From Escherichia coli (lineage in GTDB: Bacteria > Pseudomonadota > Gammaproteobacteria > Enterobacterales > Enterobacteriaceae), in NCBI RefSeq assembly GCF_046105845.1, contig NZ_CP151004.1: a DNA stretch of 64,000 nt; one strand, 5' to 3'. Under the pieces are notes generated by a model. The model had not been told where the DNA came from. It worked only from the letters and a program-made list of their open reading frames with translations, and did not search any database. Shown here in pieces: positions 2,972-8,600 of this stretch. A program made the translations under genes and the position numbers. Position 1 is the stretch's first letter. Each line of letters opens with the position of its first letter.

Positions 2972-4060
2972 TCACGGCAGGCGGTGGCGAGCTTGATAAT
3001 AAGACTGCCAGTGAGCTTCTTTATGTGTGGCGACGCGCTGTTCGAAGTAACGGCGCAGACGCGCGCGATCTTCTTCGTTATCTTTGACGATGGTTCCGGC
3101 AATACAGTCCACCAGGTCGGCAGGCTCCCCCGCGCGATTCGCTAAAAACCAGGCGCGGACACCCACAGCATGGGCCACGTTAACGGCTTCAGCGGTGGAC
3201 ATAATCGCTGTCAGTGTATCCATTGACGTTTTCTTTTCGCCGTTGGCACGCAGATCGCGGAACGTGCGCACCAGTAATTCCAGTACCGCGTCAGGCACTT
3301 TATGCGGAATACCGCTATGGGCCAGCAAACGCGCCGAAGCACTGGCGACCAGTTCGAGCTCCTGGGCGAAATCCATAATCGGAAAGACAGTTTCAAAATC
3401 GAAGCGACGCTTTAGCGCAGCACTCATTTCATTGACGCCGCGATCGCGGGTATTGGCAGTGGCAATAATATTAAAGCCTTCCCGCGCATAGAGCTGACTG
3501 GCTTCACCAGTGAGTTCCGGCACCGTCATTACCCTGTCAGAAAGCATACCTAACAGACAGTCTTGTACTTCCAGCGGTGTACGCGTTATCTCTTCAAAAC
3601 GGACAATTTTGCCGTCGCGCATTCCCTGGTAAAGCGGGGCTGGGACCAGCGCTTCCGTTGACGGACCATGGTTGATAAGCAGGGCGTAGTTCCAGCCGTA
3701 CTTGATTTGATCTTCGGTGGTAGATGCGCCGCCCTGGATGGTTAACCCGGCATCGCCGCTAATAGCGGTTGCCAGTAATTCAGACAGGAGAGATTTTGCG
3801 GTACCCGGTTCCCCCACCAACATCAAACCGCGCCCGGTGGCAAGAGTGACTAACATACGTTCGACAGCGGAGGGACTAATCACCACTTTACGGCTAATAT
3901 TTTGCGCGCTATCGCCAAGGATAAAAGCACGGGCCGCAGGCAAACTTAACTGCCAACCGGGCGGGCAAGGTGCGTTATCATTTTGTTTTAATTTTGCCAG
4001 TTCATCGGCGTATAACACAGCAGCAGGCGGACGCTGCAGATGATTATTCTGCGGTGACAT
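2972..4060 (-). CDS. yehL: MoxR-like AAA+ ATPase (Walker A GEPGTAKS)
   Basis: ORF 2972..4126; 362-codon version starts MSPQNNHLQ at 4060; P-loop motif visible. Confidence 0.85.
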   Translation of the reverse strand: MSPQNNHLQRPPAAVLYADELAKLKQNDNAPCPPGWQLSLPAARAFILGDSAQNISRKVVISPSAVERMLVTLATGRGLMLVGEPGTAKSLLSELLATAISGDAGLTIQGGASTTEDQIKYGWNYALLINHGPSTEALVPAPLYQGMRDGKIVRFEEITRTPLEVQDCLLGMLSDRVMTVPELTGEASQLYAREGFNIIATANTRDRGVNEMSAALKRRFDFETVFPIMDFAQELELVASASARLLAHSGIPHKVPDAVLELLVRTFRDLRANGEKKTSMDTLTAIMSTAEAVNVAHAVGVRAWFLANRAGEPADLVDCIAGTIVKDNEEDRARLRRYFEQRVATHKEAHWQSYYQARHRLP

Positions 4061-4138
4061 ATATTCATCCCTGAAATGTATTAATGAAATAAACGATATT
4101 TTACGCGCAATAAATGTTTTGCGCATTAGTTGTTTGAA

Positions 4139-4628
4139 CGGAAAATATCTGGAAAGCAGATCACAGTAAATAAAAAAACCTGCTGGTGAGGCAGGTTCTT
4201 TTATTTACTATTTTCAGGCCCAACACCGCAGCCTGTGCAACATCGTGTTCCAACGAACGAATTATAACCATCGGTGGACCCCGTTGCAATTAAGATAATG
4301 AGATTTATAATCCAGACGGTTGGGACGTTGCGCCGGATCGGACCAATTTCAAGTCCTGGCTACCGGACGGGTGGTGCTGCAGGTGGTGCCCTGATCCGGA
4401 GTGCAACATCGTGGTCCAACATACGTAAACCAGTATCGACAGGCAGTGTAAGGGTAAGGTGCTGGTGTTGCGCTCCTTAATAAGGAGAGCGGATGGACAC
4501 GCAGACACAAAAGTTAACCGTGCTCATTGCTGTACTGGAGCTATTAGTGGCTCTGTTACGGTTGATTGATTTGTTGAAGTAATGGGCAAATTGAAACGCA
4601 TCTAAGGGGGAATACCGCTTCCCCCTTT
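4139..4628 (+). repeat. Type I toxin-antitoxin repeat unit 1 (zor/orz-like), about 490 bp
   Basis: Near-identical to unit 2 at 4751..5240; begins gaaaatatctggaaag, ends with hairpin aagggggaataccgcttccccctt. Confidence 0.7.
4493..4582 (+). CDS. 29-aa hydrophobic type I toxin peptide MDTQTQKLTVLIAVLELLVALLRLIDLLK (ZorO/ZorP-like)
   Basis: AGGAGA ribosome-binding site 7 nt upstream of ATG; absent from ORF track because it is under 60 aa; sequence recalled from memory as Zor-family. Confidence 0.6.
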   Translation: MDTQTQKLTVLIAVLELLVALLRLIDLLK

Positions 4629-4750
4629 AATAAAATGATTACATCTTCCATTAATTCACCTGATAACTTTTTTCTTATTTATAAATTCATCGATTTTATA
4701 ATTAACGTACCATTTCGCCGGGATGTGAATATTTATGGTGGCTATTGGCG

Positions 4751-5240
4751 AAAAATATCTGGAAAGTAGATCGCAGAAAATAAAAGAACCTGCTGGTGAG
4801 GCAGGTTCTTTTATTTACTACTTTGATGTTAAGTTACTGATAGTGCAACATGGCATCTCAACGAACGAATTATAACCACCGCTGGACCGTGTTGCAATTA
4901 AGATAATGAGATTTATAATCCTGACTGTTGGGAAGTTGCGCCGGATCGAACCCATTTCAAGTCCTGGCTACCGGACGGGTGGTGCCGCAGGTAGTGCTCT
5001 GATCCGGAGTGCAACATGGCGACTCAACATACGTAAATCAGTATCGACAGGCAGTGTAAGGGTAAGGTGCTGGTGTTGCGCTCCTTAATAAGGAGAGCGG
5101 ATGGACACGCTGACACAAAAGTTAACCGTGCTCATTGCCGTACTGGAGCTATTAGTGGCTCTGTTACGGTTGATTGATTTGTTGAAGTAATGGGCAAATT
5201 GAAACGCAACTAAGGGGGAAAACCGCTTCCCCCTTTAATA
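4751..5240 (+). repeat. Type I toxin-antitoxin repeat unit 2 (zor/orz-like)
   Basis: Tandem copy of unit 1 with scattered substitutions; terminal hairpin overlaps the 3' end of yehK. Confidence 0.7.
5101..5190 (+). CDS. 29-aa hydrophobic type I toxin peptide MDTLTQKLTVLIAVLELLVALLRLIDLLK (ZorO/ZorP-like)
   Basis: Same ribosome-binding site and frame as copy 1; one Q/L difference at residue 4. Confidence 0.6.
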   Translation: MDTLTQKLTVLIAVLELLVALLRLIDLLK

Positions 5241-5563
5241 AAGTAATATTCTATTAGTTGGTTGAATATATTCTGTAGTTTACGATTAAAAATTGCTATT
5301 ACAGTTTCAGGTGATTCACCTCGTAATTTCCGCTCATCAATACACTCATCTCTTATATAAATCAACGCATCATTTATTAGCGGGTCAGCATCTTCTCGAT
5401 CACGTTGATGAAATGTTGGACGTAGCCGGAATCGCTCCAGTCGATAGACAGAACCTGTAAATAATTCAGAGCGTTTATGGATCTCAAGCCTGAAGGAAAA
5501 CGGCTCTTCAGGTACAGGGGCCTCATAATCGTAAATAGTGATCAGCTCTTTTTGCACGATCAT
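5210..5563 (-). CDS. yehK: Small hypothetical protein; last 8 codons lie inside the repeat hairpin
   Basis: ORF 117 aa between yehI and the repeats; position matches K-12 yehK; exact start and C-terminus uncertain. Confidence 0.55.
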   Translation of the reverse strand: MIVQKELITIYDYEAPVPEEPFSFRLEIHKRSELFTGSVYRLERFRLRPTFHQRDREDADPLINDALIYIRDECIDERKLRGESPETVIAIFNRKLQNIFNQLIEYYFIKGGSGFPP

Positions 5564-5623
5564 CGCTTTTCCCGGTGGCAGGTCGTGTTAATAACGAGCA
5601 GTCGCATCACTGCCCGCTGTGTT

Positions 5624-8600
5624 TTAATGGAAAATAACGTCGGGTGCGCTTAACGCTTCACTCAAATCAAACACATCAAGTTCGGCAAAAGTGACAGATT
5701 TATTGTCACGGTATACACAAAGAGAACGGAAGCTCATTAGCGCTTTGCTATCAACATTGTAGCGGTTAAAACTGGATGAAAACTTAAGGACCAGCCGGTA
5801 CTCGCCCAGGCCATAGACAAATGCGTCCTCATAGCCTGACTCCCAGCCTTTGTATCGCATTCCCATAAGCTGCCCAACGGTAGCGGATTTACCTTCCCAG
5901 CGAGTCAGGCTGTTACTGGTTGACTCGTCAGGCGTGAGCAGCACCGTGCGGCGCGACAACTGGCGAAAAGGCGGCATAATTTCGTAATCGGCAAAAAGCT
6001 GTGCAAATTCACTGCGCATTTCTGCTGTCATTTCTAACGGGTGGGCAATGCCAATCAGAGCATCCGCAGGAAGGTCAATGGGCTCATCCTGCGCATTGCA
6101 GAACTCCCCCTCAGCGGCCACACGAAAGGCGTTGAGTAAACGACGCGGTTCATTTGCCGGATAAACACCCCATATTAATCGCTGAGTAACCAGGCGGGTA
6201 AAGGGATGATTAACAAACAGAGAACGAAAATCTGCCAGCGACCAGCGTCGGATGGTGCGCAGGGCCGTTTCAAGACGCGGGAGCAGGTTTTTGCTCACCT
6301 GAGTAGCATCTTTTTTTAGCCCTTTTAGTCGTGCCAGTGCCTCGGGCGCTTTCAGTTGATCGTCATCGGCGCGCAACCGTGGAACGCTTTTCTGGCGAAC
6401 GTTTTGCTGATCAAAGATAACCGGGTTGAGGTTTTCATCGAAGCGAACGGTAAACTGCCGGGGACCAAAATCAAAACTCAACGCCTGCGGATCATCAAGG
6501 CCCAGTGTTGGGACTAATCTGTCCGCTAACTCTTCCTGGCTTAGCCCGCGATTTTCTGCGACTACCTGAAGAAATTCCGCCGCGTTATCACGTAAGGGGC
6601 GGGATTTCGCCCGTTGCGATATATGATGCAGCTGCATCAGCGCCATATCATTATTCATCAGGGTAAGGATGTTCAGGCCACTGACAGCACGGGCAGATTT
6701 GCCTTCTTGTGGCCAGGCGAGGATCTGTGTCGTCAGATCCCGAGCCGTGCTTTCGTCACCAAAGAGACTTAACGCCAGAAATGCCCAGTTGTCTTTTGCA
6801 GGGGCACCAGCTTGTTGCCAGGCGGTGAAGAGATCCCAGGCAAAAGCTGCGAGCGTTTGTGGTTGGCAAAACGTTTTCAGTTGTTCCAGCCCGCTATAAA
6901 AACGTCCCCCCTGGGTAAAGCGCAGCATTTCGCCGATAATTTCCAGAGCGTCATCGGTAACAGGTTGATTATTAGTGATAAGGCGCGGCCTGGACCACAT
7001 TTGCGGATGCCAGAAATCAGGGGCTTTTGGCATGCGCGCCGGGTAAATTTCCAGCGGGTTCTGGGTAAGTATTTTTTCCAGGGCTGGCCACACATCAGCA
7101 CGATCCCAGCGGTTTGCCACGGTTTGTAGTAATTCGCCATGTCCCTGTTCGTAAAGTAAACGCAGGGCAAATAATGCAGCTTCGCTATTATCGCTGGATT
7201 TAATGAAGACAAGAGGGATAAGTGCAGTAGCCGTATGTTCCGGCCATTGTAAAATCCACTGGCGGGCCAGATCACGCTGCGCCGCGAAACGTCGCCAGAC
7301 GCGGGCAACGGGCAGGGCCAGTTCGGTTGCGCCGAAATTTAAAATTAACGGAAATGTTTCTTTTGGACGATGTGAAAAAGCCAACAGCAGACCTGGTAGA
7401 GCATCCAATCCGAAGATACTGAGAAAATAGTCCTCACCCGCAGACAGATGCTTTTTCTCATTGATACGTAGCCAGAAAGTCAAAGCCATCTCACGCGGCA
7501 ACTGCGCCAATAAATACAGGTTCCAGATACTCTTTTCCCGACGATAGCGTGAGTAGCTGTCATTTTCCCATATGTTAATTAACACTTCTACGTGACCGCT
7601 GCGAAGCGCCTGTTCTGCTAATTGAGCTTCCGGGGAGCTCCAGCCATTCATGATCTCTTCAACCCGCCCTGGGTAGTAATGCCACTGAACAATGAGTGAA
7701 TTGCGTGCAGCATCCAGTTTTCCGGGGAGTATATAATTCAAAAACAGCCATACATCATCTCCAAAACCCAGCTCCTGTAGTACAACTCGTCCACTTTTAT
7801 GTTCCATGCGTTCCGCAAGAGATTCCGTGCTGAAATAACGGGCAGACTCAGTGGCGGCAAGCCTCTCTCGTTCGCCTGGTTGCCAGTAAACTTGCGGCGT
7901 TAATTCGAACGGTGCCAAATCAAGACGTGGAACTGTCATTTTTTTCTTACTACGCCACGGTGGTGAAACGAGGATTTCAGGCAGATTGCTGTTATCGGTG
8001 CCATCAATAACCGGTTTGGGCGGTGCCGATAAATAACTATTCAGCACTGCCCGGGCTTGAGTACTTAACCACGGCATCACTTCTGCTGCCAGTTGTGGCT
8101 GCGATGCCATCAGCGTTTGTAACAGTGTACGCCAGTATTCATCTCGAGCTTTTTGCTGTGCAGGCAGCTTTTTGTCTTCGATGATTGGATAACCAGGGCG
8201 CGCAGGTGGTTCTTTTAGCGCCAGAAGCTCTGCCAGTGCGGCAAGCGTCGCATGGGGGAAATTTTTACTGTATTTAGCTACACGTTGCAGGCTGGGTTTG
8301 TTTTTATCAGCAACTAACAGCAGGGTGCGGATGACCTGCGGATGGTTAATTTGTACCAGCAGACTGCCGCAATCTTCTTTATGGGCATACATTGCCAGGC
8401 GTGGAACGGCTGCCAGTCCTTGTTCGCGCAAAAGGGCAGCGCAGGCCGCGTAGCCGAAGTGGTTTTCATGCGACATGTAGCTGGCTTCCCGATCGCTAAA
8501 TATATCCTGGCTCCAGTAGCGTTCGAGTTTTTTCACCGCTCTGGGGTCATTAGCAACAACTTTTAACCACTCCTTAGAATGAAAATGAGTCCGCGGGCAT

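Follow-up and report, generated by a model that had tools for sequence, protein, structure and literature searches.

Apparent loss of two tandem stop codons extends Escherichia coli yehK into the hairpin downstream of the zorO toxin gene

The window considered here, the whole 64,000-nucleotide stretch of Escherichia coli DNA that was analysed, carries two tandem zor-orz toxin-antitoxin modules, a GC-rich hairpin behind each toxin gene and, converging on the second of these hairpins, a yehK reading frame that is longer than the canonical gene. In this region of the E. coli chromosome yehI, yehK and yehL all lie on the minus strand. The type I module zor-orz was discovered in the yehI-yehL interval, where it forms a tandem repeat (Fozo 2010, PMC2887945), the zorO-orzO/zorP-orzP locus has been characterised (Wen 2014, PMC3919570), and a survey across E. 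coli describes the variants ZorP (T3S) and ZorQ (A20S) (PMC11264685). The features discussed below are the following.

4139..5242, tandem repeat: unit 4139-4640, spacer 4641-4748, unit 4749-5242; period 608-610 nt
4172..4247, minus strand, Orz antitoxin sRNA gene, yehL-proximal (Rfam RF02083, 101.3 bits)
4493..4582, plus strand, zor toxin ORF of the yehL-proximal copy, L4Q variant (MDTQTQKL...), 29 aa (ORF list)
4606..4625, both strands, hairpin of the yehL-proximal zor copy, GGGGGAATACCGCTTCCCCC (reading and folding)
4641..4748, minus strand, intermodule spacer of 108 nt, degenerate remnant of the yehK 3' part (about codons 62-89)
4782..4855, minus strand, Orz antitoxin sRNA gene, yehK-proximal (Rfam RF02083 OrzO-P, 90.2 bits)
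4892..4919, plus strand, zorO promoter-like sequence TTGCAA-16-TATAAT (promoter scan)
5101..5190, plus strand, zorO toxin ORF, 29 aa, MDTLTQKLTVLIAVLELLVALLRLIDLLK (MDTLTQKL...; ORF list)
5210..5242, minus strand, ten additional read-through codons of yehK (FIKGGSGFPP) and the new TAG stop (direct reading)
5214..5233, both strands, palindromic GC-rich hairpin GGGGGAAAACCGCTTCCCCC, stem-loop 3' of zorO, candidate bidirectional terminator (folding and scan)
5210..5563, minus strand, yehK, 117-aa stop-loss allele; canonical YehK has 105 aa (ORF list and alignment)
5243..5245, minus strand, yehK codon 107, TAC (Tyr), second stop loss (junction alignments)
5246..5248, minus strand, yehK codon 106, TAT (Tyr), first stop loss (junction alignments)

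Both modules follow the same plan. Each Orz gene, scored against an Rfam gathering threshold of 60 for RF02083, lies divergent from a TTGCAA/TATAAT promoter that is followed by a 5' UTR of about 175 nt and a hydrophobic 29-aa ORF, and these hexamers are the conserved zor promoter (PMC11264685). The 5' end of Orz is complementary to the zor 5' UTR over 20 nt with one mismatch in copy A; in copy B the complementarity covers 13 nt, followed by a G.U pair, one mismatch and 6 nt more. The length expected of a zor-orz pair is roughly 15-19 nt in the part of PMC3919570 that PMC11264685 quotes. Judged by its Orz genes, toxin ORF and complementarity, the module in the window is predicted to be a bona fide zor-orz locus. 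Toxicity of Zor and its repression by the cognate Orz have been established experimentally only for the EDL933 genes (PMC3919570).

The closest described relative is the O157:H7 zorO-orzO/zorP-orzP locus, with which the window shares the site between yehI/yehK and yehL, the 29-aa ZorO, divergent Orz genes above the Rfam threshold, the conserved promoter hexamers and the two tandem copies. No residue distinguishes the yehK-proximal zorO from the toxin in that position in an EHEC-like strain, and the published descriptions are in accord with its sequence and arrangement (PMC3919570, PMC11264685). Unlike at O157:H7, the yehL-proximal toxin is the L4Q variant and neither ZorP (T3S) nor ZorQ (A20S), the hairpin follows yehK with no ERIC element in between, and the yehK frame continues across this zorO 3' hairpin.

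The two repeat units are about 92% identical. Alignability of these units of about 609 nt stops at ...CCCCCTTTAATAAA (4640 in the first copy, 5242 in the second), 9 nt beyond the hairpin, so the hairpin closes the yehK-proximal unit, as an earlier sequence-only reading of this DNA had said. Single-copy strains are shorter by exactly one unit (607-608 nt), a state consistent with collapse through recombination between the copies.

The hairpin between the convergent genes zorO and yehK is a 20-nt palindrome at 5214-5233 within an extended stem at 5212-5235. On the plus strand it folds at -14.8 kcal/mol (z = -2.97; one of 200 shuffles was equally stable) and on the minus strand at -15.2 kcal/mol (z = -1.71), with a stem of 9-10 bp. 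It recurs about 23 nt after the zor ORF in 11 loci, including those of single-copy strains and of E. whittamii, and is missing solely from the K-12-like locus, where the toxin is lost. The distance from the start site implied by the promoter (about 4927) to the hairpin (about 5236) is some 310 nt, and zorO transcripts of about 280 and 310 nt have been seen on Northern blots (PMC3919570). Because the hairpin accompanies every zor and this distance equals the larger transcript, we read it as the zorO 3' terminator; it is most likely the intrinsic terminator of the toxin mRNA. Since yehK converges on the same element, it may also be a bidirectional terminator shielding zorO from yehK-sense transcription.

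The tracts that could serve as U-tracts are weak in both directions, so the terminator activity is one that we infer. On the zorO side the tract reads UUUAAUAAA, and the terminator scan made no call on the plus strand; on the yehK side it reads UUAGUUGCGUUU, and a lenient terminator-like scan did call the minus strand. In having one GC-rich palindrome between convergent genes, flanked by A/T-rich sequence that could supply a U-tract either way, the element resembles known bidirectional intrinsic terminators. It differs from them in that the candidate U-tracts are short or interrupted and in that the yehK ORF crosses the stem-loop, which is unusual.

The sequence-only reading had further observed that the yehK frame ends inside this hairpin, and both the sequence and the ORF list (117 aa, 5210..5563) bear this out. 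The C-terminus in the window is ...NQLIEYYFIKGGSGFPP, and the TAG stop, which is the reverse complement of 5210-5212, lies only 19 nt from that of zorO. The palindrome at 5214-5233 supplies codons 111-117 (GGSGFPP) as well as the final base of the Lys110 codon.

How the frame came to enter the hairpin can be followed at the junction between yehK and the hairpin. The window yehK was aligned with annotated yehK from eight E. coli genomes and from three genomes of Escherichia outside E. coli. In the protein alignment every form of YehK is collinear up to E105, and the differences begin at the next codon. The junctions fall into the following types.

E. whittamii: ...CAA ATA GAA TAA TAG TTTATTAAAGGGGG; 105 aa, two stops in tandem, 9 nt ahead of the hairpin
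K-12-like, EHEC-like and B2 E. coli and Escherichia sp. E1V33: GAA TAA, ERIC, hairpin (K-12-like without the hairpin); 105 aa
XJ6.1 type: GAA AAA TAG C TTTATT...; 106 aa, ending ...EIEK
Combat11I9: CTA ATA GAA TAT TAG TTTATTAAAGGGGG; 106 aa, ending ...LIEY
Window, 2012C-4502 and PCN033: CTA ATA GAA TAT TAC TTTATTAAAGGGGG; 117 aa

At codon 106 the window thus has TAT where E. whittamii, Escherichia sp. E1V33 and the K-12-like and EHEC-like E. coli have the stop TAA. Codon 107, here TAC, is a TAG stop in Combat11I9, which is the closest two-copy E. coli, as well as in XJ6.1 and E. whittamii, and this TAG versus TAC difference alone separates the 106-aa from the 117-aa form. Alleles with an extra C after the TAG are in a different frame, in which read-through would end after three codons. 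The E. whittamii protein is 79% identical to that of the window, and its locus likewise holds two zor copies.

The alleles were counted among 5,426 complete E. coli genomes with junction-specific 40-45-mers, for which each 28-nt megablast seed spans the diagnostic base, so that the counts are lower bounds. The form ending ...EIE and followed by the left end of ERIC was found in at least 3,790 genomes, the form ending ...EIEK in at least 679, the TAG form ending ...LIEY in at least 485 and the 117-aa TAC form in at least 226. An ERIC element of 55-130 nt lies between the yehK stop and the hairpin in about 70% of E. coli.

These junctions indicate that the extension is due to loss of stop codons and not to an insertion: two successive losses, TAA to TAT and TAG to TAC, let the yehK frame run into the hairpin and yield the 117-aa ORF. 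The ancestral gene would have ended at Glu105 with TAA, directly adjoined by an in-frame TAG, 9 nt ahead of the hairpin; with yehK stopping there, a single palindrome could serve both convergent transcripts. Change of TAA to TAT would then have given the 106-aa form ending ...LIEY, and with the further change of TAG to TAC ribosomes would proceed 11 codons over the hairpin to the in-frame TAG at 5210-5212. We infer this order, TAA to TAT before TAG to TAC, from one distant outgroup and from allele parsimony rather than from a genome phylogeny.

A second trace of yehK lies within the repeat. Local alignment of the spacer to yehK scores 32-34, against 17.4 +/- 2.3 for shuffled sequences, and between 0 and 6 of 300 shuffles reach the observed score, depending on the lineage. 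Seven spacers, drawn from different lineages, were combined into an nhmmer profile; run against the 64-kb window (a 128-kb search space), it had yehK at 5298-5377 on the same strand as its top match (E = 0.0011), while the second match had only E = 2. In the reciprocal search with a yehK profile the spacer again ranked first, at a weaker E = 0.2, so that the assignment depends on the spacer profile, combined with collinearity and with the expected location beside the internal hairpin. Identity is about 66% across some 80 nt. A conceptual translation of the spacer over two frameshifts gives NGT.NYKIDEFINKKK-LSGELMEDVI, to be compared with NDALIYIRDE(C/F)IDERKLRGESPETVI in yehK. Relative to yehK, about 52 nt have been deleted beside the hairpin, between two TTT(T)ATTAA-like motifs. 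Duplicated DNA from upstream of yehL was also considered as the source of the spacer and was rejected, as alignment to that flank (3950-4138) scored at shuffle level (17 and 25).

Since the hairpin accompanies every zor copy and the spacer is a yehK fragment, it appears that orz, zor, the hairpin and the yehK tail were copied together. The copied segment would have extended from just past orz, through zor and the hairpin, to about 160 nt into yehK, after which the internal yehK fragment decayed. Because the repeat unit includes part of the flanking yehK, the zor-orz duplication probably arose in place. The same spacer is carried by E. whittamii, and the duplication is therefore either older than the split of that species from E. 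coli, or the locus was exchanged by recombination; the former is most likely, unless the E. whittamii locus was recombined in. Other type I modules, such as ibs-sib and ldr-rdl, similarly lie head-to-tail within one intergenic region, but unlike these the zor-orz repeat unit demonstrably took in part of a flanking protein-coding gene. Taken together, we consider it very probable that the hairpin is a zorO 3' stem-loop and likely terminator, that yehK lost two stop codons and that zor-orz was duplicated in place.

Neither of the two origins that the sequence-only reading had proposed accounts for the entry of the yehK ORF into the hairpin, for which the two stop losses are responsible. One of these proposals was that insertion of the toxin module replaced the original 3' end of yehK, so that the last residues of YehK would be foreign. 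The final codons of the 117-aa allele are indeed hairpin, and hence module, sequence; the yehK stop lies a few nucleotides from the repeat boundary, and the last one to three residues vary with the junction type. Yet residues 1-105 are collinear and nearly identical with or without the toxin module: they are intact in the K-12-like HB101, which has neither toxin ORF nor hairpin, in strains with one or two modules, in those where ERIC parts yehK from the hairpin, and in the three non-coli genomes, E. whittamii included. Nothing of yehK has been lost, and the nearest relative, whose hairpin is the same, differs by the one base between TAG and TAC and stops 11 codons sooner. Replacement of the 3' end is therefore exceedingly unlikely. 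Comparing YehK C-termini between strains with and without the repeat, which had been suggested as the means of deciding the matter, turns out to be non-discriminating: the ends do vary (EIE, EIEK, LIEY, LIEYYFIKGGSGFPP or EIELYSK before the stop) but do not track the presence of the repeat. The other proposal, in which the module took up a yehK terminator and was duplicated together with it, is right about joint copying, to which the hairpin and the yehK-derived spacer both attest, and does not explain the longer ORF. In its fuller form the hairpin would originally have been the yehK terminator, carried along in the duplication, with its use by the zor mRNA secondary. The decayed yehK 3' fragment adjoins the internal hairpin, with tail, hairpin and zor copied as a block, and it is the yehK strand on which the terminator-like scan scores the hairpin. 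On the other hand, no locus was found with the hairpin and without zor, or with zor and without the hairpin. The ERIC element parts yehK from the hairpin in about 70% of strains whereas the gap between hairpin and zor is fixed at about 23 nt, the zorO transcript of about 310 nt fits an end at the hairpin, and the extension of the ORF is left unexplained. A hairpin that first belonged to yehK is thus improbable.

The extension could also be functional. In this scenario translation of yehK over the shared hairpin, ending in Pro-Pro and stop, would suppress the hairpin: ribosomes would melt or occlude it, yehK-sense transcription would run antisense through zorO, and antisense read-through and toxin expression would be coupled to yehK. 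Toxin expression would then be tied to the translation of a neighbouring gene in about 4% of E. coli strains, a natural insulation switch. The entire hairpin does lie within the translated ORF, whose stop is so close to that of zorO, and the allele is common, being present in 226 of the 5,426 complete genomes and on more than 1,000 contigs. A C-terminal Pro-Pro before the stop codon is reported to slow termination and provoke tmRNA tagging (Hayes, Bose and Sauer 2002). Against such a role, the sister TAG allele occurs twice as often, several strains carry yehK as a pseudogene, and the constraints on the hairpin fully account for the sequence of the tail. Moreover, no antisense RNA to the zor coding region or to either of its UTRs was seen in EHEC (PMC2887945), although the EHEC junction allele is a different one. 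A regulatory role for the extension is accordingly very unlikely. Faulty sequencing or assembly, or an ORF called too long, might be suspected as the source of the 117-aa form because the 106-aa and 117-aa forms are one base apart and the product name given by PGAP is merely 'hypothetical protein'. However, 226 complete genomes contain the junction 45-mer of the window yehK with that very base, and the 3.3-kb locus is identical across two independent public E. coli assemblies, which leaves an artefact with practically no chance.

With the two stop losses as the preferred reading, the tail YFIKGGSGFPP follows from the terminator sequence and is most likely a by-product that is neutral or carries a slight cost. 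Its neutrality is itself deduced, and as the allele occurs on several yehK backgrounds and many contigs, selection for the tail may operate. The gene shows defects elsewhere: F11 carries a frameshift, PCN033 an internal stop and Escherichia sp. MOD1-EC7003 a further changed end (...EIELYSK). This suggests that only weak constraint acts on the precise C-terminus, and at times on the gene as a whole. Scans of YehK and of both Zor peptides against Pfam and NCBIfam returned no families, and a comparison of the YehK sequence with solved structures found no relative. An AlphaFold2 model of YehK, built on a 9-sequence alignment, is of low confidence throughout (pLDDT 60); within it residues 111-117 have pLDDT below 50 and are predicted to be disordered. 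As in other stop-codon-loss extensions, a single-base change from stop to sense carries yehK to the next in-frame stop, the tail derives from formerly non-coding 3' DNA, and the change is polymorphic. Unlike the usual case, yehK lost two tandem stops in succession, and its added codons, the last two of them for Pro-Pro, derive from the palindrome of a putative terminator that a convergent toxin gene has in common with it.

In the three zor papers the hairpin, the yehK overlap and the yehK-derived spacer are not discussed. The gene yehK is absent from the text of PMC3919570 and PMC11264685, whose BLAST queries end at the zor stop codon, and PMC2887945 refers to the region only as yehI-yehL intergenic. 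In a literature search for yehK, the only paper naming yehK, yehL and yehI together was a genome announcement. The hairpin, the convergent yehK overlap and the yehK-derived spacer are small additions to the known zor-orz system. The finding is accordingly of small import, since zor-orz has been described in detail and stop-loss tails are a commonplace kind of polymorphism. It does identify the zorO 3' hairpin as a shared convergent element lying outside the published conservation analyses, and the zorO-orzO/zorP-orzP spacer as a yehK relic that points to duplication in place.

The 117-aa yehK is an ordinary strain-to-strain polymorphism and no new system, and it is already in the databases as an unnamed CDS. 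The exact YehK protein of the window occurs on 8 public E. coli contigs in a cluster table and on 15 in a contig look-up, the commonest 117-aa variant is found on at least 1,000 contigs, and the 117-aa allele has been seen on at least three yehK backgrounds (P0001, P0004 and P0006). The RefSeq entry for a product of this length is WP_000636928.1 (strain 2012C-4502), named 'hypothetical protein' by PGAP; this 'hypothetical protein' of several percent of E. coli is YehK with both stops mutated, and it could be renamed.

Roughly 70% of complete E. coli genomes carry a repeat positioned precisely between the TAA stop codon of yehK and the zor hairpin, which we take to be an ERIC/IRU element from the ERIC PCR primer sequences. 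The full form includes GTGAATCCCCAGGAGCTTAC...AGTGACTGGGGTGA; in EHEC-like strains it has collapsed to ~55 nt (TATACTC...GAGTATA). Among the comparison loci, the repeat occupies this position in two EHEC-like strains (L003 and L008), in F11 (L007) and in two other Escherichia (L009 and L010). The window has no ERIC/IRU repeat at the corresponding site, 5243-5246.

The left end of ERIC also marks one boundary of a deletion that accounts for the K-12-type intergenic region, as seen in the K-12-like strain HB101 (L001, 462-767). The deletion extends from there to ~30 nt into the 5' UTR of the yehL-proximal zor, removing both toxins and both hairpins; the promoters and orz are left in place. The resulting arrangement fits the 'orz-only' OrzPmg locus that has been described (PMC11264685). 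In the O157:H7 strain PV15-279 (L012, 2228-2858), a yehK-yehL distance of only 631 nt suggests a single zor-orz copy, compared to two in EDL933. At the same locus, the annotation treats yehM (3958-4440) as a pseudogene because of an internal stop codon.

yehK itself is decaying in several lineages, including F11, PCN033 and Escherichia sp. MOD1-EC7003:

L007 (F11), 1165-1481: yehK with a frameshift
L006 (PCN033), 1412-1765: yehK with an internal stop
L010 (Escherichia sp. MOD1-EC7003), 3001-3312: yehK with 5 codons deleted; its end, ...EIELYSK*, extends into ERIC

In the window, the N-terminal half of YehK carries R31, a residue shared with non-coli Escherichia, whereas the 3' end is the same as that of the common 117-aa allele. 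Across the whole locus (3900-5700), identity to any of 5,426 complete RefSeq E. coli genomes is at most ~97%. These features suggest a divergent or recombinant background for the window lineage.

The toxin modules and their surroundings include two further plus-strand reading frames in the window:

4493-4582, plus strand: yehL-proximal toxin, L4Q variant (MDTQTQKL...)
4635-4769, plus strand: 44-aa ORF (MITSSINSPDNFF...), antisense to the yehK-derived spacer that it spans

The L4Q toxin differs from all named forms, namely ZorO, ZorP (T3S) and ZorQ (A20S), and the E. whittamii toxin at the same yehL-proximal position is a Q6R variant. Complementarity between the yehL-proximal Orz and zor covers 20 nt with one mismatch. 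For the yehK-proximal pair (5008-5028 against 4842-4862), it comprises 13 contiguous nt, beyond which come a G.U pair, a single mismatch and another 6 nt; this is near the published minimum for repression. The 44-aa ORF is most likely spurious. Of the possible yehL reading frames in the window, the longest begins at 4126 on the minus strand (384 aa). Its 22 additional codons (4061-4126, minus strand) are probably untranslated; the annotated start of yehL orthologues is the equivalent of window position 4060, giving 362 aa.
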